Part shown: piece after piece, positions 456-33,818 of the stretch
Numbering within the stretch: position 1 is the first letter of the stretch
Layout of the letters: each line of letters opens with the position of its first letter
Source of the DNA: Squalus acanthias
Taxonomy: Eukaryota
Reading direction: 5' to 3'
NCBI GenBank assembly: GCA_030390025.1
Contig: CM059432.1
Coordinates: 97,962,001 to 98,026,000, forward strand
Length of the DNA: 64,000 bases
Notes under the pieces: generated by a model
The model's database searches: none
Told to the model about the DNA's origin: nothing
What the model saw: the letters and a program-made list of their open reading frames with translations, nothing else
Position numbers and translations under genes: made by a program

Positions 456-2167
456 GAGATACAGAATCGTCAAAGCATATATAGATTGAGAACAATGCAT
501 GTGTAACTTACAATTGCAGACAACTGAATTCAATCATCCTGACTGTTTATCTGCCGAGGTGTGATAAGTAGAGGCATAGGGCTGGACTTTCTCAATGGAG
601 ACGAGTTGGAGGCGGGACTGCTGCTTATCATGTCAATGTCCCGCCTCCATCATCGTCTGACCAACCAGAGGGATTTTCCCCTGATTGACCTTGTTAAGCC
701 CGCCCTGCGGGCTCAGCAGGCCAATTAAGGAGGAAGTCACTGACAGAGCACGTCAACGTCTAATGTGCTATCTGTCAAGACTTCTTGAAAGAAGAAATGT
801 CAGCGTTTCACAGCTCTGTGAAGCTGTCAAACACTGACATTCTCTGTAGTTTGATGAGGCCTTGTGTTCAGGACTCATCAAACCTTTCAACTTTGTCAAT
901 TTCAGATGGCTGTTGGTTCGGAGGATCCAACAGCCAGTCTGTGAAATCAACAAGGAAGATGTCGGTCTCCCGATCCAGGGTGGATGAAGGCTGCAGGAAG
1001 AAAACAAGGTAAGTGAACATTTTTAAACACTTATCACTCACCTTACATACTTACCACTCCACACTTGCACCCATCACTCACCTCTACATCTTACTTCCAG
1101 GTGCCTCCAAACCCCGCAGACCTCCTTCACGTCTCCTCCAACCCGACGGGGTTCTCCGAGGTCGGGAAGCCTTCACCTGAGAAGGCAAAATGGCACTAAT
1201 CCTTTTTCCTGCTTGTTAACTACTTGTTAACAGGCAGTTAAAAGGATTTAATGCCTTTCCCGCCTCCAGGAGATGGGACCCGAAGCAGCACATCTTCCCA
1301 CCTCCTGGCAAAGGGGCACAGAGGTGGGATGGGGGCGGGTTTGCCATCCGCCCCCACTTTCTGCTACTTGTAGAATTCGCAATATATCGCGATTTTATTA
1401 ATAAGGAGAAAACACAAAGTTTCGTTCAAACAGCTTTTATTTCAGCAGAATGCTGCCAGGTTGTTCAAAGTGGACACAAGCAGCCTGTAAAATGGCCGCC
1501 GCACCTCGTGACAGAACATTCTAGACTTTTCAACAGGCAGACAAGATGGCGTTCCAATAAACATTTGGGCAAGATCGATTAAGATTCAGCACAGTGAAGA
1601 TAATACACGAGACATTGTGGGTTTGCGGTATACAAATAAATACTGAAATCGGTCTCCCAGGTACGAATGAAAGCTATTGTACCGAGTAATCAAGGGCCCA
1701 TCCAAAAGACATTAATATGTAAAATCCCAACGACTCTACGATGAGAGAGCCGTTAGCAGGTAGTTATACAAAACACTTGGAAGCCCCAAAACCCCTCCAG
1801 GGAGAACACCGACCGATTTAACAATGGGAGAAATATTAACAGGTACTCAGACATTTACGAGTAGCCCCGAAACCCATTAAGAACGGAGATCACCCATACA
1901 AGACATTTGAGCGCCAGACCCTAACAAAAGAAAGGACATTAAGGTTGGGCGGGAAACGGAAGATTTTGTACTATAATTACAAGCTCCAAACCGTCCATCT
2001 TTCTCTTATTCGCTTATCCTCGTGGCTGCTCCTGTGTACTCGTAGTCGGGCTCCTGCTTGCCTGGTGCCTCTTTGAAAAGGACTGTCGAACTTTCTGATC
2101 CGTTCAGATCTACCTCGTGTCGCGTAACGAAGACCTATGTTGGTAACTGGCAGCGGAACCAAAGGCC

Positions 2168-2201
2168 CGAGATGAGATGAGATGAGATGAGATGAGATGA
2201 G
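2168..2201 (+). repeat. (GAGAT)n microsatellite within the LTR (copy at 11556-11589)
   Basis: About 6-7 tandem GAGAT units, identical in both LTRs. Confidence 0.9.
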
Positions 2202-2665
2202 AAGAGAGGAAGACCATACTCATCGCCACGGTCAGTAAATCCCGACCGCGCCTGTAGGTCGAATAGCCAAGTTTTCCTTGCCAGGGAGACTTCTTCGAAC
2301 TTGCAAGAACGGTTCATCATCGATGATATTGACTAATCTGTGAACTGTGCTCGAAAGTACCTGTTAAACCAACCAACACAGGTCTTCATCACAGCAGACA
2401 GTCCAGCCTGCTAGCCGGAGCAGAAGCAAGTAAACAAGTGGGACCAGGAGATCTCCTGACCGACACGTGGGTGCTGCGGTGAAAAACATCCGATCAGCTA
2501 TTCGGAATTTCTCCGAGTTATCACGAGTGGTGAGCATGAGTCTCGAAATCCTACGAATCTAGTTAGGATAGATATTGATAGGGGAGGGTTTAAGTATTAA
2601 GGATACTTGTAATGTGTGCCCCTATTTACGGTGTGTCGTTCGTTCCTCGTTTCCCTAGGATCAGC

Positions 2666-2747
2666 TATATAACTGCTTGTAAGATTGTACTGTCATTAAT
2701 CTGTGCTTATGACATGTATTTCATAATCTTAAATATCATGCAATAAA
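2666..2747 (+). promoter_or_regulatory. Putative LTR TATA box (TATATAA 2666-2672) and polyA signal (AATAAA 2742-2747)
   Basis: Motif order and spacing fit U3-R-U5. The motifs recur at +9388 in the 3' LTR. Confidence 0.5.
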
Positions 2748-2991
2748 GATTTTCCATTTCGTACCATTCAACCGAGTCTACATGAGTTTCATCTCCATTA
2801 CTGCTCTCGCATCTAAGTCCAGTGTCTAGAACCGTAAGGGCGAGTGATTCGAACCACTCACAGGTGTGTCTAGTGTTCCCAGGCTGGCTGGAGACCAGAA
2901 CAGGCAACAAGGCCTAGACCCGCACTGACATACAGGCTGCACAGAGCCGCGTGAATCTCACAGGCTGCGAGACACGCAGGGTCAGAATCCC

Positions 2992-3184
2992 AGATTCCAA
3001 GGATAAAAATCCCGCGGTCCGAGCCCAGGCGCCTGTCCCGGCTAGGGAAGCTAATGCACCCACCCCTCCCGACGACATCGAAGTAGTGTTAGGAGCCATG
3101 CGCAATCTCTTGAGTGCACGTGGACAGGTGGCGGTCGCAACCGGCCCCGTAGGTGCCGCAGGACCGTCTAATAGTACCCCATGA
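2992..3184 (+). pseudogene. gag: C-terminal remnant of gag, ending TGA-CTAG in frame with pol
   Basis: A Pro/Ala-rich ORF tail joined directly to the truncated LTR. It is in the same frame as pol and has no in-frame start ATG upstream. Confidence 0.65.
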
Positions 3185-6100
3185 CTAGAACCCGCGCAGC
3201 CCGTCTACCTGTGTCCGCTTAGCTATGATGCGTGGAAGCGACCTTTGGTGGAGATGGAGGTAGAGAAACAGAGGGGTAGTTATTTGTTGGACACGGGAGC
3301 TTCTTGCACCATAATCCATACAGATAGCCCTTTTGACTCGCCGCTATCCACCAGGGTCCCATTCACGTTAGCGGGGTTCACAGGAAAAGAACAGGCTGGC
3401 ACGTTCTCCCTTCCGCTATCCATTCGTTTAGGAGCACTTCACCTTAAGTGGAAGTGTATACTGATGGAATGGCAGGAGGGGGGTGGAAGAGGTATTCTCG
3501 GGTCTGATCTTCTATCGGGACACGGGATCCTCGTGGACCTCAGAAATCACTGTCTCTGGGGGGCTAAGGGTGAAAAAGGCGAGGTAATAGTGATTCCGGG
3601 GGAGGAAGAAACAGGGGTCCTGTGTACCGTACAGCCATCCGGAGGCTACGACCTCAGGCTTATGGTCGCAGATGTCCCAACGGACATGCAAGCGTACGTG
3701 TCAGATAATATGCACGCGTTTGCAACCCACAAGCACGATTGTGGGAGGGTTGTCGGGTTTGAGGTCAGCGTAGATGGGGACCCCATGACCCGACCCCAAA
3801 AGCAGTATAACTTCCCCAAAGAAGCAGAACCCGATATGGAGACAGCAATGTCCTCCTTGGTGCAGCAGGGCGTGTTGAGGCCGATAGCCACACACGTGAA
3901 CTCCCCATTATGGCCGGTTAGGAAGCCGGATAATTCGTGGAGAGCCACGGTGGACTACAGAGTCCTTAACAGTAACATTCCCGCCTGCGCGCCCACGGTA
4001 GCAGCAGTTGCTGACCTAATAGGGAGCATCCCAGCGTCCGCGACCACGTTCACGGTGCTGGATATCTCGAACGGTTTTTGGTCCATCCCGCTGCGGCGAG
4101 AGGACCAGTACAAGTTTGCCTTTACTTTCAAAGGACAACAGTACACATGGAACTGTCTGCCACAGGGTTTCCACAATAGCCCCAGTATTTTCCATCAGTG
4201 TATGGCAGGAAGTTTAAAGGAGTTTAGTCAGCCCAATCAGATAGTGCAGTATGTGGATGATTTGCTCCTATTTACGGACTCAAGGGAGGAGCATGGACCA
4301 CTACTGGACGAGTTATTGGAGCTGCTAGCGAGAAAGGGTTTTAAAATAAATCCTAAGAAAGCACGTATCGGTCAGCGGGAAGTAAAATTCCTGGGACTGA
4401 CCATACGCGCTGGGGAAAGAGCCATAGACAAAGCAAGGAGGGAGTCGGTGCAAGAATTACCGATTCCCAACAACGTAAGGGGTGTGAGGTCCTTCTTGGG
4501 ACTGACCGGTTACTGCAGGGATTTTATCGAAGATTATGCGGCCACAGCAGCGCCGCTCCTCCGACTCCTCCATAAGGGGGTGGAGTGGTCTTGGGACGAG
4601 GGCTGCCAAGCAGCCTTCGAGAAGTTAAAAAGGGATCTGCAGACCCCGCCAGCCTTAGGGGCCATAGATGGGGGGAAGGAGTTTTTCCTGGAGGTAGCTG
4701 CCAGCGGAGACAGCTTAAGCGCCGTACTGCTCCAAGAGCGTCACGGCAAGCTGAGGCCGGTTGTCTATTCTTCCAGGGTGTTAACGGATGTGGAGAGAAG
4801 TTTCTCCAATTGCGAAAGGCACCTTTTAGCCACGCATTGGGCTGTGAAAAGATCAGCAATCTTCACAGGGCTCTCTCCCATCACTCTCCTCACACATCAC
4901 ACACCAACTAAGATGCTTCTGGATGGGAGGATCAAAGATGGGACCGTAAGCAGCGCGCGCATTGCGCGTTGGACCCTTCTTCTCTCCCAGTTGGATCTTA
5001 GAGTAAAAGGTCTTTGCGAGCCCAGGCTTGCGGCCAATTTGGTATACCCCGGTACAGCCCACCGGTGTTCGGTGGAAGGGGTGTGGGACGTCAACATAGG
5101 TTTACGGGCCGGGATACATCCCACTGGGCGCGAGATTTATGTTGACGGGTCTAGCACAGTATCTGCTGGCGAGCGACTCACAGGGTGTGGAGTTTATGAC
5201 CCTGCGGCAGACCTTGCCCTGGCGATCAAGCTCCCTAGCACCATGAGCGCGCAGCAGGCTGAGCTGTCTGCCGTGGTGTACGTTGTGACCCACCCAGACA
5301 TTTTCCCAACCCCATACACGATTTGCTCGGACAGTATGTTCACCTGCAATTCGTGTACGGAATACCTGGCCATTTGGTCCCGCCGTGGATACACCTCCGC
5401 GGACGGGCGACCTTTAACGGTGAAGCCCTTGCTGGAAAAGATCTTAGCAGCAGCAGTAGGGGAGGAAGGAGAGATTTTCATCCATAAGGTGAAAGCTCAC
5501 TCCTCCACAGAGCCCCGTGGGGAGGGCAACCAGCAGGCGGATGCGCTAGCCAGGGAAGGTGCCCGCAACGGCATTTTCTGGGACCCCTATGGGACCAGAC
5601 CCATAGCAGCGATCCGAGGCAGGGACGGGAATCCCGGGAACACCAGGGTAGCATTGCCCCTAGACCTTAAGACCGTCCAAGCCCAGGATCCCGCCCTAAA
5701 AGCAGTCCTAAAAACCATTGCTGAGGGGAGGCAGGTAGAAGGTCCGTACAGTACGGCAACCCTCTCAGTTAAGGAAGGCATGCTGTTCCGCGAGGAGCAG
5801 TGGGTTGTGCCGCAGCAGCACAGGAGGGAATTCCTCCAGTTGGCTCACGAGGGACCAGGGGCAGGGCACCCCGGGCCCGAGGTTACCTGGCAACGGGTAG
5901 AGCAAGCGGGATGGTGGCCAGGGCTCAGGGAACAGGTCCGAGAGTTCTGTGCAAACTGTCTTGTGTGCGCTGCAAACAACCCAGACCCCCAGAAAAGGAA
6001 GGTGCCCATGGGACACGTAAGAAGGGTAGAGGGACCATGGCAGTCGATACAGATCGACTATATAGGACCCCTGCCCACAACCCAGGGAGGCTATAAATAC

Positions 6101-7666
6101 TGCCTCGTCTTGGTGGATGTGTTTTCCAAGTGGGTGGAAGCCTTCCCCTGTCGAACAGCTACGGCACTGGGTACAGCAAAAATCTTGGTTCGGGAAGTGT
6201 TCTCGCGGTGGGGACTTCCCCGTTTTGTGGAGTCAGACCAAGGGAGTCATTTCACCGGCCAGGTGATGCAGAACACCCTCATGCTTTTGGGCATTGAAGG
6301 GAAGTGGCACGTAGCACACAATCCCCAGTCATCCGGGATTGTTGAACGCATGAACCGGACCCTGAAGGAGAAATTGAGGAAAGAGACTAGGAACTCGCCC
6401 CAAAAATGGGCGGAAGTTCTGCCTTTAGTCCTCATGGGGGTCCGGGCCAGTCAGTCAAAAAGTACGGGGTACTCCCCGCACGAGGTGATGACTTGGAGGC
6501 TCATGCGAACCCCCACCCATGTGCTAGCGCCGGTGCTCACTGAGGGTCAGCTCCAAGAGATAAGCAGGGACAAGTTCGCCCAGACTCTCTTGGAGCGCCT
6601 GAAGCAGGTTTATGAGCAGACGGCTGGGAACATGGGAAGGCAGCATCAGGGCAATCGCTTGTTGCTGGAACCCCGCAAAACGCGGGAGTGGGAAGTAGGA
6701 GACCAGGTCATGGTCAGAAACTACGCCAGAGTAGGGAGTCTGGAACCACTGTATATGGGACCCTACAACATTGTAGACAAGGCGAGTCCCATGGTTTACG
6801 CCGTAAAAGTACCTCGGCGCACTAAGTGGTTCCACATAAACCAATGCAAACTGTACAAGCCAGGTGCGCAAGAGAAAACTACAGGGGTAAATCACGCCAG
6901 TGGGAAAGCACAGCCCCAGGTAGGACCACAAGGCACACAGGCAGGCATAGCAGCTTGCATCAGGGGAGGGGACATCCTGGAAGATCATGCAGCGTTTTTC
7001 TGGAATTGGGAGTTAGATGAGGGAGAATTCAGGGAACTCGAGTCAGATGAGGATAGTGATGACGACGGGTGGTTTTGGAGGAACGGTCCCGTTTTCGATA
7101 TGGGGAGAATGCGGGCTGCAGATAGAGATCCACACAGGGTGGACACACAAGCTGCAGGTCCCGAAGACAGGAGGGAGGAGCTAGGGGAGGCGGGGCCAGC
7201 CGCTATGGGAGCACGGAGAGTGACGGTGCGGACCCCAGAGACAGAGCCGCCCGCTTTGAACGTCCCGTCCTCGGGGGAGGCAGAGATCACGAGTGAAGGG
7301 CCGCCTGCTGGGCCGAGCAGGGCGGAGCCACAAACTGCGAGCCCCGAGGTTAGGGAGGCGGAGTCAGCGGAGGCGGAGCCAGCGACTGTGGTGGAACCCC
7401 AAGTCGTCCCGATGGAAGTCTCGGAACCCGGTCCGTCAGTCACGGAACCCCCACCCATGGCAACTCCCCGTAGGTCAAGTAGAGAACCCCAGCCCAGGAG
7501 GATGTGGTCATGTCCCCAGACTGCCCCAAGGCGTAAACTTAAGGTTAAGGTAACCCAGATACAGGCCGGCCACATCGCAGCAGCAACAGGCTGCGGCAGA
7601 TCAGAGGGAAGGGTCAGTGCCCTCCCACCGTCGGGAAGAGCTCGCAGCAGCCTTCTCAGAATTTAA
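3185..7666 (+). CDS. pol: Pol polyprotein: aspartic protease, RT, tether, RNase H, integrase and a long C-terminal extension
   Basis: LLDTGAS (D at 3290); LPQGF and YVDD (4250-4261); degenerate RNase H LEVAAS/CERHLLA/THH; second RNase H YVDGS..SAQQAEL..SDS..KVKAH..GNQQAD; HHCC zinc finger; IDYIGP/SDQG/GIVER DDE; GPY motif. The frame is open from 3185. Confidence 0.95.
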   Translation, partial: LEPAQPVYLCPLSYDAWKRPLVEMEVEKQRGSYLLDTGASCTIIHTDSPFDSPLSTRVPFTLAGFTGKEQAGTFSLPLSIRLGALHLKWKCILMEWQEGGGRGILGSDLLSGHGILVDLRNHCLWGAKGEKGEVIVIPGEEETGVLCTVQPSGGYDLRLMVADVPTDMQAYVSDNMHAFATHKHDCGRVVGFEVSVDGDPMTRPQKQYNFPKEAEPDMETAMSSLVQQGVLRPIATHVNSPLWPVRKPDNSWRATVDYRVLNSNIPACAPTVAAVADLIGSIPASATTFTVLDISNGFWSIPLRREDQYKFAFTFKGQQYTWNCLPQGFHNSPSIFHQCMAGSLKEFSQPNQIVQYVDDLLLFTDSREEHGPLLDELLELLARKGFKINPKKARIGQREVKFLGLTIRAGERAIDKARRESVQELPIPNNVRGVRSFLGLTGYCRDFIEDYAATAAPLLRLLHKGVEWSWDEGCQAAFEKLKRDLQTPPALGAIDGGKEFFLEVAASGDSLSAVLLQERHGKLRPVVYSSRVLTDVERSFSNCERHLLATHWAVKRSAIFTGLSPITLLTHHTPTKMLLDGRIKDGTVSSARIARWTLLLSQLDLRVKGLCEPRLAANLVYPGTAHRCSVEGVWDVNIGLRAGIHPTGREIYVDGSSTVSAGERLTGCGVYDPAADLALAIKLPSTMSAQQAELSAVVYVVTHPDIFPTPYTICSDSMFTCNSCTEYLAIWSRRGYTSADGRPLTVKPLLEKILAAAVGEEGEIFIHKVKAHSSTEPRGEGNQQADALAREGARNGIFWDPYGTRPIAAIRGRDGNPGNTRVALPLDLKTVQAQDPALKAVLKTIAEGRQVEGPYSTATLSVKEGMLFREEQWVVPQQHRREFLQLAHEGPGAGHPGPEVTWQRVEQAGWWPGLREQVREFCANCLVCAANNPDPQKRKVPMGHVRRVEGPWQSIQIDYIGPLPTTQGGYKYCLVLVDVFSKWVEAFPCRTATALGTAKILVREVFSRWGLPRFVESDQGSHFTGQVMQNTLMLLGIEGKWHVAHNPQSSGIVERMNRTLKEKLRKETRNSPQKWAEVLPLVLMGVRASQSKSTGYSPHEVMTWRLMRTPTHVLAPVLTEGQLQEISRDKFAQTLLERLKQVYEQTAGNMGRQHQGNRLLLEPRKTREWEVGDQVMVRNYARVGSLEPLYMGPYNIVDKASPMVYAVKVPRRTKWFHINQCKLYKPGAQEKTTGVNHASGKAQPQVGPQGTQAGIAACIRGGDILEDHAAFFWNWELDEGEFRELESDEDSDDDGWFWRNGPVFDMGRMRAADRDPHRVDTQAAGPEDRREELGEAGPAAMGARRVTVRTPETEPPALNVPSSGEAEITSEGPPAGPSRAEPQTASPEVREAESAEAEPATVVEPQVVPMEVSEPGPSVTEPPPMATPRRSSREPQPRRMWSCPQTAPRRKLKVKVTQIQAGHIAAATGCGRSEGRVSALPPSGRARSSLLRI

Positions 7667-7920
7667 AGGGGCCGCCCTGAGAACGGGCGGCACTGTAAAG
7701 TTATAAGTTAAGTCTTAAGTTCATAGTTCAAGGTTAAGTTTATAGTTTTTTTAATAAGGTTAAGATTGTAGTGTTTTTAACAGAAAACGATAAAATGATG
7801 GGAGTTTTAAAATTAGGTTTAGTTAAAGTTTATACAGCGAACGTGGAAGTTTACGTGAGGCGAGGTCAGGGGACCCGCTCACCCTTCACAGAAGCCAGAG
7901 ACTCTTGCGAGGCTGGCTAC

Positions 7921-7940
7921 CTCATTCTATCTGATCACAG
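7921..7940 (+). promoter_or_regulatory. Putative env splice acceptor
   Basis: ctcattctatCTGATcaCAG|G, 13 nt upstream of the signal-peptide ATG at 7954. Confidence 0.45.
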
Positions 7941-7953
7941 GAACCAAGGAAGG

Positions 7954-10305
7954 ATGGAACGAATTCTAGTATTGCTCGCGGCAATCGGATGTGGATTGGC
8001 CTATCGAGGCCGCACCAAGGATGTCGTGGTGTTTAGATGTTCCGGGGACACGGCCCCCATCGCGGTGGATGGGACCGGAAGACGGGAGGCAGAGGAGACC
8101 AGCACCTATTTCCACAAGGGAAGGTGGCCAGGATGGCTGGGAACGAACTCAACGGAGTATTCTAGCACATCGGGGTTTGCCTACAAAGAGACTTCTTTAA
8201 TGTGCCCCAAAGTAAGGATCATCGCACCCAGGATCAGCGTCACCGTCGGCAAACGGATTTGTTTGACTTGTAGTGGGAATGTCCCATTGAGCCGATGGTG
8301 GTGGCTGCGAAAGCTGAGCAAAACTATGAGGAACTCTTCGGTCGAGTGGGAACGACTGGGTAATAATACCCATCGGACAATTACGGGGACAAACGGACAA
8401 GTGAAAGTCTGTTGGGACAAATGGTGGGAACCGGACGAGGGAATTTATGTATGTATGTGGGGGTCAAAGTACGTTTGCCCCAAAGGCATCTCCATATTTT
8501 TCATTAATCAATGGCAGGATAACGGACAGGGGATGAGGTGGGATGCGAGCACCAGGGGGTGCGGAGCCCCATTCTCCCCGATCCCAGTAAATGCCACTGA
8601 GCTCATTACGCGCCCACGCAAAGCCCCGCCCACGATTCCGGTGGTTCTAGCTGAGGAAGAAGGGTGCCCTAAAACTAGTAAGGGACCCGGGAATGGTTTG
8701 GTACTGGTCCCCACAGACCAGATACTATTTCAGGGGGTACATTACGCGGTGGCCTCGGTGATTTTAAATCTCACTGAGGTGCGGTTACCAGAGTGGTGCC
8801 CCAAAAAGACGGAACAGTTGTATCAGGTCCTGTTGACCAAGATGTTCAGACAATTTTACGAATTCGATTTCGCGGAAATTGATAAAACAAGTTTGTACAC
8901 CGCACCACAGGAAGTTTTGGATCAAGTAGGGAGGCAAAGAAGGGGTTTGGTGAACGATGCGTTCACTGCTTTTAACACGGGTACATCTGTGGTTAACGCT
9001 CTAGACAGTGTGGAGCTGCAGACCCAGATTAATGGTTTAAAGACACAATTAAAAGACATTCTAACAGATGAGAATAAAGTGGTAGGGTCAGGTTTACACG
9101 AGGACCAAGCCATGACTCTCCATTTAAAGGAAATTATAGCAGAGTTGGAGAAACTTGCAAAGACGGTAAATGCCCTGATTAGGGAAGATCGGAATGCATC
9201 CGATCAAGCTGCGCAGAACGAGGTGTGCGTGCTTTACGGGGCGTGGTTACTGGGCGAGGGCCGCAGTAATTTGGAGGATTTAAAACAAGGTTTGGTCCCG
9301 TCCTGGATAAGTAACAAACACCTGCGGGCGCTCCACCCTTTTCAAAACGCATTAAGTCCGTGCCAGCTCAGGCTAGCTTCAGAAGCTTACCCAGTCCCCG
9401 TGGACTGCGGACGATCAAACCATACTATTATGGGAATAGTATTACGCATGCCGGTTTTGGGCGACACAGCAAAGCCCGCCCCGGTGTATCGGGTAGAGAA
9501 CATTGGTGTCATTCGGGGGGGAGCCCACATTCGTTATGCAGCGGTTCCACCTTACGTCATCCGCTGGGAGCAAACGATGACAGGTACAGATCTCTCTGGT
9601 TGTCGTGGCAGGGGAGCACACATAATACTGTGCCCCCAGCACTTGAATGCCTTTTTAACACCACAATGCGGGTTCAGAACGACTGGCGCCAAGTCCATGA
9701 ATTGCACCATGGAGGCAATGGCACAAGATCATGTGCCTCCGCAGGTAGCATACATCGGGGGTGGAACATATTGTGTTACCACTGCAGCGCAACACTACCA
9801 GCATGGAAACCGTAGCCGGTGTCCGGTGAGTAACAGCAGTTTCTGTTTTAAACCCAGGGCGGAAGTTCAAGTAGCATAACAGCGAATTATCCCAATCCCT
9901 GAACCATCCACTGTTCATCTCACAGTAAAAGAGAATTTCACCGACTTGCAACGATTCGTCGCGCATTTCGGATACCTCATTCCCCCTCTCCCTGAACACC
10001 TCACCAAACTTTTAAAAGCCGTCGCGGTGTCACAGAAACATTTTTACACATTAGAGCAGAAAACTGTCGAAATAGGAACAGACATTCTGGATATAGTAGT
10101 TCCACCGTGGTGGAATCTGTTCACCAATATTGAAGTGCCTTCATGGATCAGAATAGCCTCCCACATTTTAGTCGTATGTCAAGTGTTTATTGTAGTGTAC
10201 CTATTGGTCGTACATTGTAAAAGAGACAAACGCCTCACCAAGCATGAAAACACGGGAGAGTGGCGAGAACGTTACGTGCGCGTGCACGATGAAAGCACCG
10301 TGTAA
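7954..10305 (+). CDS. env: Envelope/class I fusion glycoprotein (~783 codons) with one in-frame TAA at 9877-9879
   Basis: Signal peptide MERILVLLAAIGCGLA; Ig-like motif; RQRR furin site (8932-8943) followed by a fusion-peptide-like stretch and heptad repeat; Cys-rich region; N-glycosylation sequons. ORF 9946-10305 is in the same frame and supplies the TM helix (IASHILVVCQVFIVVYLLVV) and tail. Confidence 0.88.
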
Positions 10306-10747
10306 TCGGAAAATGGCGTCATTCCCGCTCGCCACGTGCGCCGCGGAAATTTGTACTCGATCATGATTTTCAAAGATTGTAAATACGTTTGGGAACTCGA
10401 CATGTGTTAAGAGTTGGTGTTGATTATTTTGGTGATGGTGTTACAGTTAAAAATGATTGTTTGGTTTTGGGTTTTGTTTTCCTTTCCCTGAATAAAAGAT
10501 GAATATACAGGTGATACGAGAGGCATCGGCCTGGTTACGCCGGGAAGGAAAACAAGTGGTGTAAGTTTAAGGGCAAATAATGCCTACGGTGATATAAAAT
10601 GTAATTTTCTTGGGAAATAAGGACGACACAGAGACCCTAGCTAGGTTAAAATTAATGGGATTAATTTGCTGGATTCGGAGAGAAATCGAGATAATATTGC
10701 TCACCACTATGATTTTTGATACGATAAGCGGAGTTATTCGCATCAAC

Positions 10748-10756
10748 AGGAGGGAC
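10748..10756 (+). other. Polypurine tract
   Basis: AGGAGGGAC immediately before the TG of the 3' LTR. Confidence 0.75.
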
Positions 10757-12384
10757 TGTAGAATTCGCAATATATCGCGATTTTATTAATAAGGAGAAAA
10801 CACAAAGTTTCGTTCAAACAGCTTTTATTTCAGCAGAATGCTGCCAGGTTGTTCAAAGTGGACACAAGCAGCCTGTAAAATGGCCGCCGCACCTCGTGAC
10901 AGAACATTCTAGACTTTTCAACAGGCAGACAAGATGGCGTTCCAATAAACATTTGGGCAAGATCGATTAAGATTCAGCACAGTGAAGATAATACACGAGA
11001 CATTGTGGGTTTGCGGTATACAAATAAATACTGAAATCGGTCTCCCAGGTACGAATGAAAGCTATTGTACCGAGTAATCAAGGGCCCATCCAAAAGACAT
11101 TAATATGTAAAATCCCAACGACTCTACGATGAGAGAGCCGTTAGCAGGTAGTTATACAAAACACTTGGAAGCCCCAAAACCCCTCCAGGGAGAACACCGA
11201 CCGATTTAACAATGGGAGAAATATTAACAGGTACTCAGACATTTACGAGTAGCCCCGAAACCCATTAAGAACGGAGATCACCCATACAAGACATTTGAGC
11301 GCCAGACCCTAACAAAAGAAAGGACATTAAGGTTGGGCGGGAAACGGAAGATTTTGTACTATAATTACAAGCTCCAAACCGTCCATCTTTCTCTTATTCG
11401 CTTATCCTCGTGGCTGCTCCTGTGTACTCGTAGTCGGGCTCCTGCTTGCCTGGTGCCTCTTTGAAAAGGACTGTCGAACTTTCTGATCCGTTCAGATCTA
11501 CCTCGTGTCGCGTAACGAAGACCTATGTTGGTAACTGGCAGCGGAACCAAAGGCCCGAGATGAGATGAGATGAGATGAGATGAGATGAGAAGAGAGGAAG
11601 ACCATACTCATCGCCACGGTCAGTAAATCCCGACCGCGCCTGTAGGTCGAATAGCCAAGTTTTCCTTGCCAGGGAGACTTCTTCGAACTTGCAAGAACGG
11701 TTCATCATCGATGATATTGACTAATCTGTGAACTGTGCTCGAAAGTACCTGTTAAACCAACCAACACAGGTCTTCATCACAGCAGACGGTCCAGCCTGCT
11801 AGCCGGAGCAGAAGCAAGTAAACAAGTGGGACCAGGAGATCTCCTGACCGACACGTGGGTGCTGCGGTGAAAAACATCCGATCAGCTATTCGGAATTTCT
11901 CCGAGTTATCACGAGTGGTGAGCATGAGTCTCGAAATCCTACGAATCTAGTTAGGATAGATATTGATAGGGGAGGGTTTAAGTATTAAGGATACTTGTAA
12001 TGTGTGCCCCTATTTACGGTGTGTCGTTCGTTCCTCGTTTCCCTAGGATCAGCTATATAACTGCTTGTAAGATTGTACTGTCATTAATCTGTGCTTATGA
12101 CATGTATTTCATAATCTTAAATATCATGCAATAAAGATTTTCCATTTCGTACCATTCAACCGAGTCTACATGAGTTTCATCTCCATTACTGCTCTCGCAT
12201 CTAAGTCCAGTGTCTAGAACCGTAAGGGCGAGTGATTCGAACCACTCACAGGTGTGTCTAGTGTTCCCAGGCTGGCTGGAGACCAGAACAGGCAACAAGG
12301 CCTAGACCCGCACTGACATACAGGCTGCACAGAGCCGCGTGAATCTCACAGGCTGCGAGACACGCAGGGTCAGAATCCCTTACA
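10757..12384 (+). repeat. Complete 3' LTR (1628 bp)
   Basis: TGTAG...TTACA, followed by TSD TACT. Confidence 0.95.
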
Positions 12385-12446
12385 TACTTTACCGGCAGTC
12401 CCACCTCCATGCCCGCCTCCTCGGGGCTGAGAAAATCCAGTCCTCA

Positions 12447-13060
12447 GAGTACAAAAGCAAGGAAGTTATGATGAACCTTTATAAAACACTGGTCCGGCCT
12501 CAACCGGAGTATTGTGTCCAATTCTGGGCACCACACTTTAGGAAGGATGTGAAGGCCTTAGAGAGGGTGGAGAAAAGATTTACAAGAATGGTCCCAGGGA
12601 TGAGGGACTTCAGTTATGTGGATAGACTGGAGAAGCTGGGGTTGTTCTCCTTAGAGCAGAGAAGGTTGAGAGGAGATTTGATAGAGGTGTTCAGAATCAT
12701 GAGGGATCTAGACAGAGTAGATAGAGAGAAACTGGTCCCATTGGCGGAAGGATCGAGAACCAGAAGACACAGATTTAAGGTGATTGGCAGAAGAACCAAA
12801 GGCGACATGAGGAAAAACTTTTTTTACGCAGCGAGTGGTTACAATCTGGAATGCACTGCCTGAAAGGGTGGTGGAGGCAGATTCAATTGTGGCTTTCAAA
12901 AGGGAATTGGATAAGTACTAGAAGAAAACATTTTTGCAGGGCTACGGGGAAAGGATGGGGGGTTGGGACTAGCTGAAGTGCTCTTGCAGAGAGGCGGCAC
13001 AGGCTTGACGGGATGAATGGCCTCCTTCTGTGCTGTTACCATTCTATGATTTTATGATTC
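12447..13060 (+). mobile_element. CR1 LINE 3' fragment
   Basis: EYKSKEVMMNLYKTLVRP..EYCVQFW..RRLRGDLIEV. The CR1-type 3' UTR ends in (TTCTATGA)-like repeats. Confidence 0.9.
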
Positions 13061-13389
13061 CATTATATTTTAATTTCTCTATTTATCCTAAATCATGTTT
13101 GTAATGTCCGAGAATCATAGAAGAATAGAATGGTTACAGAACAGAAGGAGGCCATTCGGCCCATCGAGCCCGTGCCGGCTCTCTGCAACAGCATTTCAGC
13201 TAGACCCAATCCCCCGCCCTTTCTCTGTAGCCCTGCAATTTTTTTTCTTTCAGGTACTTATCCAATTCCCTTTTGAAAGCCATGATTGAATCTGCCTCGA
13301 CTACCCTCTCAGGCAGTGCTTTCCAGATCATAACCACTCGCTGCATACATTTTTTTCCCTCATGTCGGCTTTGGACCTTCTGCCAATCA

Positions 13390-15179
13390 TGAATGGTGGT
13401 GGATAATTAAATAACTAACGGGAGGAGGAAGCTCCATGAATATTCCCATCCTCAATGATGGTGGTGCCCAGCACGTGAATGCAAAAGACAAGGCTGAAGC
13501 ATTTGCAATCATATTTAGCCAGAAGTGCCGAGTGAATGATCCATATTGGCCTCCTCCTGAGGTCCCCACCATCTCTGAAGTCAATCTTCAGCCAATTCGA
13601 TTCACTCCACATGATATCAAGAAACAGCTGAGTGCACTGGCTATTGCAAAGGCTATGGACCCTGACAACATCCCGGCTGTCGTGCTGAAGACTTGTGCTC
13701 CAGAACTAGCCAAGCTGTTCCAGTACAGCTGCAACACTGGCATCTGCCCGACAATGTGGAAAATTGTCCATGTATGTCCTGTCCACAAAAAGCAGGACAA
13801 ATCCAATCTGGCCAATTACCGTCCCATCAGTCTACTCTCAATCATCAGCAAAGTGATGGAAGGTGTCATCGACAGTGCTATCAAGTGCCACTTACTCACC
13901 AACAACCTGTTCACCAATGCTCAGTTTGGGTTCCACCAGGACCACTTGGCTCCAGACCTCCTTACATCCTGGGTCCAAATATGGAAAAAGAGCTGAATTC
14001 CAGAGGTGAGGTGAGAGTGACTGCCTTTGACATCAAGGCAGCATTTAACAGAGTGTGGCATCAAGGAACCCTAGTAAAAGAATCAGGTGGAAAAACTCCA
14101 TTGGTTGGAGTCATACCTAGCACAAGGAAAATGGAACAATGTAGTTGTTGGAGGTTAATCATCTCAGCCCCAGTACATCGATGCAGGAGTTGCTCAGGGC
14201 AGTGTCCTGGGCCCAACCATCTTCAGCTGCTTCATCAATGACCTTCCCTCCATCATAAGGTCGGAAGTGGAGATGTTTGCTGATGATTGCACAGTGTTCA
14301 GTTCCATTCGCAACTCCTCAGACAATGAAGCAGTCCATGCCTGAATGCAGCAAGACCTGGATGACATTCAGGCTTGGGCTGATAAGTGGCAAGCAACATT
14401 CGCGCCACACAAGTGCCAGACAATGACTATCTCCAACAAGCAAGAGTCTAACCACCGCCCCTTGATATTCAACGGCATTCACTTCACCGAATCCCTCACC
14501 ATCAACATCCTGGGGGGTCACCATTGACCAGAAACTTAAGTGGACCAGCCACATAAATACTGTGGCTACAAGAGCAGGTCAGAGGCTGGGTTTTCTGCAG
14601 CAAGTGTCTCACCTCCTGACTCCCCAAAGCTGTTCCACCATCTACAAGGCACAAGTCAGGAGTGTGATGGAATACTCTCCACTTGCCTGGATGAGTGCAG
14701 CTCCAACAACACTCAAGAAGCTCGACACAATCCAGAACAAAGCAACCCGCTTGATTGGCACCCCATCCACCACCTTAAACATTCACACCTTCTACCACTG
14801 GCGCAATGTGTCGGCAGTGTGTACCATCTACAAGATGCACTGCAGCAACTCGCCAAGGCTTCTTCGACAGCACCTCCCAAACCCGCGACCTCAACCACCT
14901 AGAAGGACAAGGGCAGCAGGTGCATGGGAACACCATCACCTGCAAGTTCCCCTCCAAGATACACACCATCCTTACTAGGAAATATATTGCCGTTCCTTCA
15001 TCGTCGCTGGGCCAAAATCCTGGAACTCCCTCCCTAACAGCACTGTGGGAGTATCTTCACCACAAGGACTGCATTGGTTCAAGAAGGCTGCTCACCACCA
15101 CCTTCTCAAGGGCAATTAAGTGTGGGCAATAAGTTCTGGCTTTGCCAGAGACGCCCACATCCCAGGAATAAAAAAAAAA
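13390..15179 (+). mobile_element. 5'-truncated CR1/L2-group (Crack-like) LINE, degenerate
   Basis: NYRPISLL, QFGF, FDIKAAF, MFADD, YKAQVRSVMEYSPLAW; polyA tail; TSD AATCA. Confidence 0.85.
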
Positions 15180-15800
15180 TCACCTTAAATCTGTGTTCTC
15201 TGGTTCTCGACCCATCCGTCAATGGGAACAGTTTCTCTCTATCTACTCTGTCTAGACCCCTCATGATTTTGAACACCTCTATCAAATCTCCTCTCAATCT
15301 TCTCTGCTCTAAGGAGAACAACCCCAGTTTCTCTAGTCTATCCACGTAACTGAAGTCCCTCATCCCTGGAACCATTCTTGTAAATCTTTTCTGCACCTTC
15401 TCTAAGGCCTTCACATCCTTGCTAAAGTGCGGTGCCCAGAATTGGACACAATACTCCAGTTGAGGCCGGACCAGTGTTTTATAAAGGTTCAGCATAACTT
15501 TCTTACTTTTGTACTCCAGGGGCTGGATTTTGTCTTGGGGTTGGGTTGGGGTCGTGTTACCCGCATTTCGTGTTGCCCCCCCCCGACTCCAGATTAATGT
15601 GGATGAATGACGCGATTTTAACTTAATTGGCCAATTGAGTTCCAACATGTGGGAACCCATGGCCAATGAGTTATTCCAGTCTGAAAGTCACCTTCGATGA
15701 CGTCATCATTGCTGCTGCATTTAAGGTCTGCAACAAGCCTTGCTTCTTCTGCAGGCTGCCAAGCTTTTGGACCTCTATTCTAAAGGCAACTGCAGCAGGA

Positions 15801-17717
15801 ATGGCCAGCCAACGGCCCAGGTCTGCTCCCAGGTTCCATGACGTTGCCCTGCAGGCTTTGGTGGATGGAGCAAGAGCCAACAGGGAGGTGCTCTTCCCCT
15901 CCTCAGGGAGGAAGAAGCCTCCCCAGCAGACCAAGGCTGTGTGGGTCCAGATCGCCCAGGAGGTCACCTCCTTATCATTCACCTGCAGAACCTGGATCCA
16001 GTGCAGGAAGAGGTTTCATGACCTTCTACGTACTGCTAAAGTGACTATGACTTTCCCTTCACCCTCAATCTGATCCCCATTGCCTCTCCTCACCAGCACT
16101 CAGCTTTAGCAACCTCTTCCTCCATATCCCACTTGACACTGACATCCATGCACCCTTACCCATTCCCTCTCCCTCTATGGTCAAATTCACCTTACTATTC
16201 GACTATGCAGCCCTCACACTCCCTATCACTGTCATGCTTTGAAAACAACTTACAACACACAGTGAGGACCCTTAGTCTCGCCAGCTCAATCCATCTTTGT
16301 CTCCTTCTAAGCATCTATGCTATGGATTCTCTACACTCACTCCTTCAATCTCACTCAAACTCCACTTGTCTCCCTCATTGCAGGAAAAGAGAGCTCACAA
16401 TAAAAGGGAAAGAGCCAGGACAGGAGGAGGGCCACCCTCATTAGCCCAGCTCACCCCCTGGGAGGATGCGGTCCTGGAGATCATGGGCATCCAGGAGGAA
16501 ACGCAAGTGGGGGATAGACAGACGGGTGCATCAGAGCAAGCTGGTGACTGAATAGTGTTCCATCTCTCTCATTGACATTGCATGAGTCGCTGATAATGAA
16601 TCTGAAGCTCTAACAGATGGATTTATGATCATCTGCAATATGCAATGTGCATGTAACCTTGGCATCACATCTCTGACTCTTTCCTTTACTCCCCCACAGG
16701 ACCATCGCAAGCACACGTCCCCACTAGCCAGGAGGAAGAGCCTGAGCAGACAGACTCCTCAGAGGAAGCTGCAACCTCTGAGGGCGCAGCGTCAGCAGAA
16801 CTCAGCGCACCCAGCACCAGTGCAGATACTTACACCTCGGTGGGACCCTCGGGACATAGAGTAGTGTTGTCACCTGGTGTATCACAGCTCACAAGTGAGC
16901 ATCAACAGATGGTGGAGACAGGGACAGCAGTGGAGAGTCCTAGTCGGAGGACTCTCCTAGCTCGGCTCAGCTGCATGTCGACCCTCTGCCTCTGGGTCCA
17001 TCCATAAGATCAGCGGTGCTGGGACTCCAGGAACAGATGCAGGAGTCTCTGACAGGTTTTGTCTCTAGGGTCGCTGCGAGTGTGGAGTGAATGGAGGAGT
17101 CCATAGCGAACATGAGCAGAGCCTTTGTAGAGTCATTGGCGCTTGAACGCATCACCATGGAAAGGATGGCAACCTCCATGGAGGTGATAAGTCGCCAGAG
17201 TGCAGAAAACATGGTGAGTGTTCTGAATAGAATGACATCTCTGGAGGAGCGATGGTCATCTATTGAACAGAGAAACCAGACCTTCATGGAAGTCCTTCTG
17301 AGTTGGACTTCCAGTGCAGATACGGGTCCCCATGGCCCCCCTGATGTGCATCAAGGTGCTCTCAAGCCACTTGCAAGCGCTGAGGTGGACCTGACCCATG
17401 AGAGGGATGTTGGTGGCACACAACAAGGAGGTGGGGGCTCCTCTCCAAGTGCACACACTTCCATGCCACTGACAGGTCCTCGGTCAGAGCCCCACCAGAG
17501 TCCGCACCCAAGTGAGATCGGCATCTCCAGCCCTGCCCAGCCGCAGGAGCAGCAGACTGTTGCCGAGCCCTCTCAGGTTCGCAACCCCAGAGGACGCCCG
17601 CCAAAGGAGTCGAGACAGGAGCAGCAACAAAGTGAGCAGGTGACCTCCACTTCTGCTGAAGCCACAGGGGAAGCACCACGTAGGAGCATGCGTAAGAGAA
17701 AGAAACTGCACAAATAG
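15801..17717 (+). pseudogene. Harbinger Myb/SANT-like DNA-binding gene; predicted exons 15801-16040, 16384-16543, 16700-17717
   Basis: APRF..L..LV..V...REVLFP...W.QIA..V...RTWIQCRKRFHDL motif; GT/AG boundaries; C-terminal RKRKK; frameshift and stop in exon 3. Confidence 0.8.
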
Positions 17718-17999
17718 TCACAAGGTTAGTCACTTGGGTGAATTTTGATGTGTATTGTGAAAAAACCATCAGGTGTAAAGTTTAAATAAAAACTCTGATG
17801 GCTACAGCTGCAGTTGTGGCATCTGTCATTTCGCTAATGGGACTTCCACAATGAGGCCTTAGGATAACTTGCAATTGTCAGTATGGTGGTCACATTGTTA
17901 GGGATTCGCTGGGTCTGGGCCATTGTCGTAGCTCTGGTAAGAAGCTGCGAGGCAAAAGTGCTTGCTTGTCTAGGCTAAGCAAATCTGGCCAAGATGAGT

Positions 18000-19223
18000 G
18001 CGTTCCTTGCATTCCGGGCAGCTATGGTCTCGCGTAATGCTGCTGCTGGTTGAGGGGCCTCTGCAAGTTATTTGTTCTCTCTCTCTCCTCCTCCTCCTCC
18101 TCCTCCTCCTCATCTGAGGAGGCTATGTGAGGAGCCACTTGGTCCTCCTGCATCTGTAAGCCACGACGCTGTGCCATGTTGTGAAGTGCACAGCAAACCA
18201 CAACGATTCTGGAGACCCTGGCTGCTGATTATTGCAGGGCTCCACCTGATCTAAGGCATCTGAAGCGCATCTTCAGCATACCGATGGTTTGCTCGATTAT
18301 GGCTCTGGTGGAAATATGGCTGGAGTTGTAGCTCTCCTCAGCTGCATTGGATGGGCTCCTCAACGGCCTCATTAGCCACGTCTTCAGGGGATAGCCCTTG
18401 TCTCCAAGTAGCCATCCGTGATGTTGGTCTGGCGGACTGAATAGCGGAGGCACACTAGACTGGCGCAGTATGAAGGAGTCATGGCAACTGCCAGGGTACT
18501 TGGCACAAACATGCAGAACTTCCTTGTTGTGGTCACACACCAGCTGAACGTTGAGGGAGTGGAAGCCCTTGCGGTTGACAAAAATACCTGGATTGCGATG
18601 AGGTGCCTTAAGGGCACATGTGTGCAGTCAATGACGCCCTGCACCCTTGGAAAGCCTGCCAGATTAGCTAATCCAACCGCACACGCCGTGACACTTGCTC
18701 GATCCTTGGTGAAATGGATGTGATTTTGCGCGATGGCAAAGAGGGCATCGGTTACCTGCGTGATGCAAGTGTGTGCAGCCGCCTGGGAGATGCCGCTGAT
18801 GTCTGCTGCTGATCCCTGGAATGAGCCTGAGGCAAAAAAGTGGAGTGCAGTGGTGACTTTGATGGCCACTGGTAAGGGGCGTCCACCTGGTCCTCTGGGC
18901 TCCAGGTCTTGTTGCAGCATTGCACAAATGTCACCCACTACCTCTCGCGAAAGTCGGAGCCGCCTTTGGCACTGCTGCTCAGACATGTTGAGGTAGCTCA
19001 CCCTCTGTCTGTAGACCCTGTTTGGGCGGTATCTCCTGCGCCGATGGCCTTCCATGCGCTGGCCCCTTCTGTCCTGTGCAGCTTCAGGTGGGTGAGCAGC
19101 AGCTTGGCGCTCCTGCTGTTGCTGCTGCTGTTGGTGCTGCTGTTGTTCATGGTTCTGCTGGTGCCACGGCTGTTGTTCGTCCTCATCGGATACCCAGGAG
19201 GGAAAGAAAGAAATGGCTCCCAT
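18000..19223 (-). pseudogene. Harbinger (HARBI1-like) DDE transposase, frameshifted
   Basis: [56 protein letters not shown]. Confidence 0.88.
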
Positions 19224-20511
19224 GCCTCTGGTATATGTCTCAGTTGAGGAACCCCTCAATGAGGGTGGCGAGAGGGGGTTCCCAGGAGGTCACACTGCAG
19301 ATGGGTGTCAGGCTCCAAACTTCCAGAGCTGCGGTTATGCCTTCTAAAAGTTCCCCCAGACCTGTGACAACAAAGTCCTGCCACCTGCAATTGATGGCTG
19401 ATCAAATCTCCTATTTAAAGGTTGAGCTGCAGCTGATAGTCAGCAATCCACTTGTGCTCCCGCCAGGTTTCACTGGAGTGTTTCCCATCAAGCGTGCTTC
19501 ACGTGGGAAAAGGGTTAAACTACCTAAAATGCTTCAAAATGGCATTACTGAGCCACTTTAGGGATTGTTAAGGGCGTTAATGGCCTCTCCCGCCTCTTGG
19601 AGGTGGGACGGAGTCGGGAACCCCGCGACCGATTTTGTCAAAATTGCGTGGAGGCGTGTTGGAGTTGGGACCCCCGAATCTGCAACTTTAACCCCCCACA
19701 CGCCTCCAAACCCGACTCCACGGGTCATTCAAAATCCAGCCCCTGGCCTCTATTTATAAAGCCCAGGACCCCATTTTTTTTTAACTGCTTTCTCAATCTG
19801 TCCTGCAACCTTCAACGATTTGTGCACATATACCCCCAGGTCCTGCACCCCCTTTAGAATTGTACCCTGTGGTTTATATTGCCTCTCCGCATTCTTCCTA
19901 TCAAAATGTATCACTTCGCACTATTTTGCGTTAAACTTCATCTGCCACGTGTCCGCCCTCCGCCCATTCCACCAGCCTGTCTATGTCCTCTTGAAGTCTA
20001 TCCCTATCCTCCTCACTGTTAACTATGCTTCCAAGTTTTGTGTCATCTGCAAATTTTGAAAAATGCCCTGTACACCTAAGTCCAAATCATTAATATATGT
20101 CAAGAAAAGCAGTGGTCCTAGTACTGACCCCTGGGGAACACCACTGTATACCTTCCTCCAGTTCGAAAAACAACCGTTCACCACTTCTCTCTGTTTCCTG
20201 TCACTTAGCCAATTTCGTATCCATGCTGCCACTGTCCCTTTTATTTCATGGGCTTCAACTTTGCTTGTAAGCCTATTATGTGGCACTTTATCAAATGCCT
20301 TTTGGAAGTCCATGTACACCACATCAACCGCACTGCCCTCATCAACCCTCTCTGTTACCTCATCAAAAAATTCAGTCAAGTTGGTTAAATACGATTTGCC
20401 TTTAACAAATCATGCTGGCTTCCTGAAGCACTTTCAATCTTGACAAAAGATTTAGTTCTCTAATTCTCTACACTTTTTATGCCAGTTTTCTCTTCTTCTC
20501 ATGAACACAGT

Positions 20512-32825: not shown

Positions 32826-33781
32826 ATGGGAGAGCAGGTGATGTGTTACTGCTGCAATATGTGGGAGCTGGTGGACACCATTGATGTTCACGGTGAACAC
32901 ATTTGCAGTAAGTGTTGGCTGCTCGAGGAACTCCGGCTCCGTGTTGATGAGCTGGAGTCCGAGCTTCAAACACTGCGACACATCAGGGAGGGGGAGAGTT
33001 ACCTGGACTCCGTGTTTCAGGAGGTAGTCACACCAATTAGAGTAACTAATTCAGAAGTAGCCCGTGGTCAGGGACAGGAAGGTGTGACTACGAGTGAGGC
33101 AGGTACAGGGATCCAGGAGGTAGTGTTGGAGGAGCCGCAGCCCTTGCTCTTGTCCAACAGGTTCGAGGCTCTTACTCCCTGTGTGGATAGGAGCGGGGAC
33201 TGCAGGGAGGATGAGCAACCTGGCCACAGCACCGTGGTAAGGGGACCATTCAAGTGGGGGGAGTAAAAAGAAATGTTGTAGTGGTAGGGGATAGTATCAT
33301 TAGGGGGATAGATAGGGTTCTTTGCAGCCAAGAGCGAGAGTCCCGAAGGCTGTGTTGCCTGCCCGGTGCCAGGGTTAAGGACATCTCCTCTGGGCTGGAG
33401 AGAAACTTGGAGTGGGAGGGGGAGGATCCAGTTGTCGTGGTCCATGTTGGTACCAATGACATAGATAGGACAAGGAAAGAGGTTCTGCTGAGGGAGTTTG
33501 AGCAGCTAGGGGCCAAATTAAAAAGCAGAACCTCGAGGGTAATAATCTCTGGATTACTACCTGAGCCACGAGCAAATTTGGCTAGGGTAAATAAAATCAG
33601 GGAGTTGAATGCGTGGCTCAAAGACTGGTGTGGGAAAAATGGGTTTTGCTTCTTGGGACACTGGCACCAGTACTGGGGCAGGAGAGAGCTGTTCCGTTGG
33701 GACGGACTTCACTTGGCCAGTGCTGGGACTAGTGTCCTGGCGAATCGAATAACTAGGGCTGTGGAGAGGGCTTTAAACTAA
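32826..33781 (+). pseudogene. CR1 ORF1 (zinc finger/leucine zipper plus SGNH esterase), frameshift near 33250
   Basis: CYCCNMW..CSKC..LEELRLRV..LE; VVGDSIIRG; HVGTND; DGLHL. Confidence 0.85.
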
Positions 33782-33818
33782 TTAGTGGGGGGAGGTTTCA
33801 AGAGAGCAAAAAATAAAA

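Follow-up and report, generated by a model that had tools for sequence, protein, structure and literature searches.

The stretch of Squalus acanthias DNA analyzed here, hereafter the window, is 64,000 nt long (NCBI GenBank assembly GCA_030390025.1, contig CM059432.1, positions 97,962,001 to 98,026,000 of the forward strand) and contains a provirus at positions 1369-12384, which is real, yet this copy is dead and unable to propagate. We consider it very probable that it is a defective member of a young family of endogenous retroviruses (ERVs) of a cartilaginous fish, belonging among the canonical retroviruses and positioned in or next to the group resembling snakehead retrovirus (SnRV; clade Huo or class III). 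An earlier sequence-only reading of the window had described the provirus as lokiretrovirus-like, with an envelope (Env) resembling the fusion (F) proteins of Mononegavirales; structure searches bore out the F-like Env, and phylogeny overturned the lokiretroviral assignment. The family is called SnRV-like by resemblance, and an SnRV-like ERV of a shark is itself a known kind of element: ERVs of this type have been reported throughout the vertebrates (PMC6001957; PMC12193657), and CmiERV lineage I is such an ERV of the elephant shark, a cartilaginous fish (PMC4422223). That lineage, compared here by description and not by sequence, has one copy of 75 million years (My) of age, whereas hundreds of young copies are present in our case.

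Phylogenetic position of the family

Trees were built with 57 (reverse transcriptase, RT) and 34 (RT plus tether) of 224 extracted RT segments, picked to cover the groups. SnRV was taken from IMG/VR (10,688 nt), and its RT equals the SnRV row of the alignment in PMC7947760; foamy, gamma and walleye-type rows were found by RT pattern and typed by motif, ERVs of class I from the host were added, and the lokiretrovirus (loki) rows are proteins with motifs matching Loki-Pma, Loki-Aro and Loki-Xla of the same alignment. The RT and RT plus tether trees placed the element inside the canonical retroviruses, with supports of 100/99 and 100/100, and set the lokis separate (99/98). In the integrase tree, the eight loki rows were supported at 100/99 and the element was outside them, at a position of its own without support. 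In the approximately unbiased (AU) test, grouping the element with lokis was 66.7 log units worse (p=0.0005), while the cost of grouping it with SnRV and SnRV-like rows was no more than 1.6 log units (p=0.44). Grouping with gamma/epsilon rows was 30 log units worse, a borderline result (p=0.047), and in the trees the element was outside the class I clade; it was also outside the 100/100 foamy clade in both trees, in a set without fish or shark rows of foamy-like ERVs (FLERV).

The closest named retrovirus in RT identity is SnRV (43.7%); relatives from frog, coelacanth, bird and other sources range over 37-54%, loki-type sequences reach at most 39.5%, gamma/epsilon 38% and foamy 31-36%. The motifs PTVA, LDISNGFWSI, LPQGFH, IFHQ, QYVDD and KINPKK are common to the element and the SnRV row in the alignment of PMC7947760, and the loki rows have PFGY where the RT of the element has LPQGFHNSP.

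The view that the family is a genuine lokiretrovirus, which would make it the first in cartilaginous fishes, is extremely improbable and, on RT, is refuted under the model used. It can draw on an F-fold Env with homology to loki Env detectable above shuffled sequences, on the tether plus RNase H, and on the gap left by the finding of lokis in none of six chondrichthyan genomes screened. The tether and the F-like Env, which the sequence-only reading had treated as a loki signature, are both present, but neither is diagnostic: all retroviruses have the tether plus RNase H (PMC7947760), and foamy-virus Env has the F fold too (PMC11468914). The three phylogenies, the AU result and the PFGY motif stand against this view, as do a rough Env tree that sets lokis apart and the architecture of Env, because in lokis the F2 segment directly follows the signal peptide, whereas about 215 extra residues precede it here. 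Lokiretroviruses (PMC7947760) thus share with the family the tether plus RNase H, the homologous F-fold Env and near-identical long terminal repeats (LTRs), and differ in a long insert between protease and RT, which is absent in the family. Two further assignments were rejected: Metaviridae (Gypsy), since the RT is outside the Gypsy clade and a second RNase H is present, and the gamma/epsilon group (class I), since the RT is outside that clade and neither CX6CC nor an immunosuppressive motif is present in the transmembrane subunit.

Gag-pol junction, primer and pol

In both the studied copy and the family, gag and pol share a reading frame and are separated by a single stop. For the family we sampled 40 junctions between LTR and primer site, following their order along the two largest contigs and leaving out four that were tandem or adjacent, and the 7-mer TGACTAG was present in 34 of the 36 readable gag-pol junctions of these copies; in the window this UGA followed by CUA-G is at 3182-3188 (the features of the provirus are all on the plus strand). 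UGA-CUA is the type II readthrough context of alphaviruses (PMC13517186), and no significant RNA fold was found downstream of the stop (z -1.3). From this context we regard the 7-mer as a probable readthrough signal and stop-codon readthrough as the probable route to Gag-Pol. The primer site, deleted in the studied copy and read from other copies, is complementary to a host tRNA-Arg(TCG) gene. In the host, tRNA-Arg(TCG) and tRNA-Ser(GCT) genes form large tandem arrays with a 1.62-kb unit (C26:38996704-42214859), and the end of the primer tRNA has 427 exact matches genome-wide.

The open pol frame at 3185-7666, found in the list of open reading frames (ORFs) and by domain search, has 1493 codons, in agreement with the approximately 1490 noticed earlier. 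It encodes protease (DTG near 3290), RT (YVDD at 4250), a degenerate RNase H representing the tether, a second RNase H from about 5135 and integrase at about 5800-6850, and both RNase H domains that the sequence-only reading had noticed were therefore recovered. The tail after integrase (6900-7666; about 250 residues) is of low complexity, acidic and rich in Pro and Glu, and the length of the pol frame differs between copies (1493, 1506, 1511 codons and others).

SnRV, besides having the closest named RT, also has in-frame gag and pol with one stop, and its primer site starts with the same TGGCGA; the SnRV primer is tRNA-Arg. Its Env is homologous over about 350 columns and, as in the family, has a furin site and an N-terminal extension. 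The Env frame of SnRV, however, has about 1130 codons versus 782 residues from the Met in the family, and the family has a 1.6-kb LTR with no 3' accessory ORF seen. Lokiretroviruses optionally carry an smc gene, and the ORF list of the studied copy contained no extra long ORF. Foamy viruses share the Env core (PMC11468914) and differ, apart from the RT identity given above, in that the family uses a readthrough-type gag-pol arrangement, in the primer, which is tRNA-Lys or -Asn for foamy viruses and FLERV (PMC5512871) versus tRNA-Arg(TCG) here, and in the extra domain of Env, which is inserted between the subunits in foamy viruses and is at the N-terminus in the family.

Fold and homology of the envelope

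The env gene (7954-10305, Met at 7954) is broken by an in-frame stop in the studied copy. It encodes, in order, an N-terminal extension, an F2-like segment, a furin site RQRR (8932-8943), an F1-like subunit and a membrane anchor at about 10135-10225. The part after the furin site had been described as a Cys-rich subunit of about 450 residues without CKS-17/CX6CC; it has 453 positions with 12 Cys, and neither motif is present.

A structure model was made for the F-like part using env of another copy and 31 homologs (predicted local distance difference test score, pLDDT, 70). By Foldseek, the model matched F of human parainfluenza virus 3 with E 3e-12, and also F of respiratory syncytial virus, Newcastle disease virus (NDV) and henipavirus. 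A second structure search gave NDV F (Z 10.7) and the foamy Env entries 8RM1 (Z 8.9) and 8RM0 (Z 8.1), and its top 13 rows were all F-family chains, with root-mean-square deviations of 5-39 A owing to long helices. The top matches in BFVD were arthropod-virus glycoproteins, and Env of walleye epidermal hyperplasia virus 1 (WEHV-1; E 2.6e-10), walleye dermal sarcoma virus (WDSV; 2e-6) and feline foamy virus (4e-5) as well as baculovirus F were also found there. The fusion core of Env is accordingly modeled with the paramyxovirus/pneumovirus F (class Ib) fold, which is not specific to lokis. Compared with F of those viruses, the F2/F1 core is the same at 10-14% identity, and an attachment module appears to be built into Env of the family.

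At the sequence level, the best profile match of Env in the PDB was foamy Env (E 0.011), the F1 part alone gave no match there, and Pfam found no fusion family, including Fusion_gly, in Env; among 17 homologs, a weak Baculo_F in one chimeric protein was the sole match of this kind. HHalign connected the Env family profile with SnRV Env at 94% (E 1.4e-7, 349 columns). When a profile of eight Envs from sharks, frogs and unnamed sources was used, the scores were 60 and 30 bits for two loki Envs and 16 bits for SnRV Env, while all of 90 shuffled sequences scored below 2; a narrower profile (three shark rows and five unnamed fragments) gave 35 and 26 bits for the loki Envs and 2 bits for SnRV. One of the loki Envs scored closely matches the printed Loki-Ofa Env. 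In a weak FastTree analysis of Env (11 rows at 15-20% identity), the family was with a shark Env and SnRV, and lokis were apart. The SnRV Env (7661-9160 of its locus) was assigned by Atlas to Fusion glycoprotein F0 with a score in the high-confidence range, and its head is much longer than that of the family and has two furin-like sites; a single-sequence fold of it reached only pLDDT 40, so its F-likeness is based on HHalign and the Atlas features.

Among named homologs, a skate Env is closest to that of the family (76%), and Envs of two sharks follow at 32% and 28%. An alpha-globin exon of the assembly scored 81, 68 and 65 bits on PDB chains 1CG5, 1GCV and 3MKB, which come from a ray and two sharks, higher than on any other listed chain with a single domain. 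The cartilaginous-fish host proposed from the sequence is well supported. The two shark Envs, at these low identities, could belong to other families or be co-opted genes, and the order of one of these sharks scored 0 in the loki screen. Related Envs are also present in four frog genera, and one annotated gene model has a frog-type Env head fused to an SnRV-like Pol (48% identity, E 3e-33).

Env has about 215 residues ahead of its F2-like segment. Within this extension, the segment at 8212-8451 is probably an immunoglobulin (Ig)-like domain, which we report as a lead only: the Pfam Ig_3 signals were below the cut-off (E 0.06 for the studied copy and 0.0085 for one homolog; signals in three homologs overall), Atlas gave Ig clusters with fairly high confidence, and a PDB search gave no match. 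This extension may be an attachment or receptor-binding module, and the mature protein would then be a furin-cleaved trimer combining a class Ib fusion core with an N-terminal, probably Ig-like, attachment module.

Proposed placement in or next to the SnRV-like group

Several results weigh against an SnRV-like placement. No tree had a supported clade of the element and SnRV, the SnRV-like rows forming an unsupported grade, and the trees contained no ERV-L, FLERV, Odin, beta or lenti rows; grouping of the element with foamy viruses, 26 log units worse, was not rejected by the AU test (p=0.13). Pairwise BLAST between Env of the family and SnRV Env was not significant (best E 0.08), the Env profile ranked loki Env above SnRV Env, and the stop context of SnRV is UAG-GGC versus UGA-CUA-G in the family.

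In another reading, the family is a separate, unnamed and deep lineage of canonical retroviruses of class III grade, and its likeness to SnRV reflects shared old features. The long branch of its own (0.59) with no supported sister, the closest named proteins being merely 50-54% identical in RT, the readthrough signal unlike that of SnRV and a much shorter surface subunit are as this reading expects. We nevertheless judge it unlikely, since the primer type, the in-frame gag-pol, the short spacing between protease and RT, the Env homology and the RT motifs are common with SnRV, and since the SnRV constraint costs so little in the AU test.

Copies in the genome and selection

The assembly contains at least 620 proviral 5' ends of the family, counted as 620 exact LTR-primer junctions (control, 0). 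Gag, pol and env are all full in 24 of the 40 sampled copies. The gag frame was open in 35/39, that of pol in 16/25 and that of env in 24 of the 36 copies with full env, and all three were open in 11 of the 40, so the earlier suggestion that intact relatives may exist was supported by the genome search. Copies differ by about 1.5%.

Env variants common to at least two copies comprise 67 synonymous and 13 non-synonymous changes, giving a ratio of non-synonymous to synonymous polymorphism (pN/pS) of 0.06, and singletons gave 0.20 (23 open envs); the corresponding values for pol were 0.11 and 0.25 (14 copies). Per pair of copies, env has about 27 synonymous versus 7 non-synonymous differences, a constraint like that of pol. 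We infer from these patterns that env has probably been under strong purifying selection and, because env is as constrained as pol, that the family has probably spread by reinfection. The estimate, however, is conditioned on open frames (23 of the 40 copies for env), and env pN/pS was equal (0.08) within pol-deleted copies and within the others, which may mean that the diversity was inherited from source viruses and does not reflect selection during copying. Multiplication by retrotransposition in germ cells, with env open merely because the family is young, would agree with the small distance between copies and with head-to-tail arrays and shared deletions. We regard it as quite improbable, because neutral decay should give the opposite of the synonymous to non-synonymous ratio observed in env.

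A pol deletion of about 3.3-3.4 kb (approximately window 3200-6900) is common to 14 of the 40 copies, and in these gag is open in 12 and env in 7. Several pol-deleted copies are within 7.7-kb head-to-tail arrays. This subfamily is a probable non-autonomous partner, which would have spread using Pol supplied in trans.

According to the mode of replication that we propose, which resembles that of SnRV, RNA would be driven by the LTR, primed by tRNA-Arg and translated into Gag-Pol by readthrough of one stop, and integration would produce a 4-bp duplication; copies would have multiplied mainly through infection requiring Env. Concerning other species, 53-76% of env words were found in 20 of 23 listed sequencing runs, with seven organism codes and 11 studies, and we treat this as only a lead to cross-species spread of the family. 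In one run presumed to be RNA, all 30 bins were covered, with LTR far above env and env above pol, a pattern that is not a proof of expression.

Origin of the retroviral envelope

Wang and Han saw no similarity of loki Env to the Envs of canonical retroviruses and favored separate acquisition (PMC7947760; PMC9040795), and Fernandez et al. assigned orthoretroviral Env to class Ia (PMC11468914). By profile, Env of the present family appears to have detectable homology with the Envs of lokis and SnRV; as modeled, it is structurally similar to Env of foamy and walleye epsilon viruses. Such an Env bridge between lokis and a canonical lineage, together with the F-like matches of SnRV and walleye viruses, runs counter to the independent-origin scenario and to a blanket class Ia placement, and the origin of retroviral Env becomes directly testable by structure-guided trees. 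Env of WEHV-1 and WDSV matches the F-type model, though epsilonretroviruses are orthoretroviruses, whose Env has been called class Ia.

The homology suggests that the ancestral retroviral Env may have been of F type. We put forward, tentatively and as something short of an even chance, a scenario in which the class Ib fusogen was ancestral, was kept in lokis, foamy viruses, SnRV-like viruses and walleye epsilon viruses and was later replaced by class Ia elsewhere, and in which the present family, with an Ig-like head, is still spreading in an Env-dependent manner in sharks and skates as the first invasion in progress among cartilaginous fishes. Sideways acquisition of the F-type env from a loki or another F-bearing virus, which would make it uninformative on the ancestral Env, is a real alternative, although a somewhat unlikely one. 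Anamniote retroviruses often swap Env, and SnRV-related pol has also been described with gamma-type Env (10.1101/2021.11.23.469661); the ranking of loki Env over SnRV Env and the lead of arthropod-virus glycoproteins in BFVD are also in its favor. On the other hand, SnRV, sharks, a skate and frogs of four genera all have related Envs, one gene model joins a frog-type head to an SnRV-like Pol, and the fold is also found in foamy and walleye epsilon Envs, and several separate transfers would be needed because of this wide distribution.

Our literature search, whose coverage was partial, found no paper stating the F fold for Env of SnRV or SnRV-like viruses, and the claim may already exist. In the part of the Viro3D source table that was searched, walleye and foamy viruses scored 0 and there was no SnRV row, and this table also misses the foamy Env. 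As for ongoing invasion, the 37 host orders listed in a survey of invading ERVs include no cartilaginous one, with 13 cartilaginous genomes screened (PMC10435555); a young family with more than 600 copies and a constrained env is a strong candidate invader, if insertion polymorphism is shown.

Structure and lesions of the studied copy

Comparison of both flanks identified the target site duplication TACT at 1365-1368 and 12385-12388, which confirms the 4-bp duplication noticed before, and among other copies 4-bp duplications were present around three of four further LTR pairs and several solo LTRs. The 5' LTR (1369-2991), delimited by LTR alignment and comparison with another copy, is without its final 5 nt; the 3' LTR (10757-12384, 1628 nt) has TG...CA ends and AATAAA at 12130, and is preceded by a polypurine tract at 10748-10755. 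Exact alignment gave a single mismatch (2400/11788) and no gaps across 1623 bases, in keeping with the one mismatch noticed earlier, and this mismatch corresponds to an age of 0.14-1.4 My, with a very wide Poisson range, at rates of 2.2e-9 to 2.2e-10 (taken from PMC7947760 and PMC4422223). Near-identity of LTRs is not peculiar to this locus, as five of five LTR pairs compared differ by 1-4 bases. The claim of recent integration is upheld, and the observed/expected ratios of CpG (internal 0.74, LTR 0.87, flank 0.46) are consistent with recent arrival. A (GAGAT)n microsatellite is within both LTRs (2169-2214 and 11557-11602), and LTR length is 1627-1692 across copies.

The anatomy given by the sequence-only reading stands, and two lesions had been overlooked. 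First, 1625 nt are missing relative to another copy at the junction 2991/2992, comprising the LTR end, the tRNA-Arg primer-binding site and most of gag, so that the 5' LTR abuts the gag tail (2992-3181, the last approximately 63 codons). This junction occurs only once in the 3.7-Gb assembly, and the loss most likely postdates insertion, because the 3' LTR keeps an intact end. Second, env is interrupted before the membrane anchor by a stop at 9877-9879. Among the copies sampled this stop is private to the studied one, and none of 37 others with matching context has it. In the course of events we propose, the primer site and gag would have been lost and the env stop gained after insertion. An assembly artefact as the source of the LTR identity or of the deletion is very improbable: the family is a high-copy repeat and read contigs did not bridge the locus, but the duplication matches on both sides, the LTRs have one mismatch, the env stop is private, the studied copy is 1-1.4% or more from other copies, and other LTR pairs also differ by 1-4 bases.

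Neighboring elements

LINE (long interspersed nuclear element) fragments adjoin the provirus at 12429-15687, and a near-complete CR1-type LINE is at 33215-36777. The window also contains a GC-rich Gypsy element with stops (26907-30746) and, on the minus strand, another Gypsy-like pol in degraded form (22701-26112). Head-to-head ORFs at 17091-19289, for which Pfam gave no match, resemble a Harbinger transposon pair. Elsewhere, the host has class I (epsilon-like) ERVs with pol frames of up to 1190 codons.

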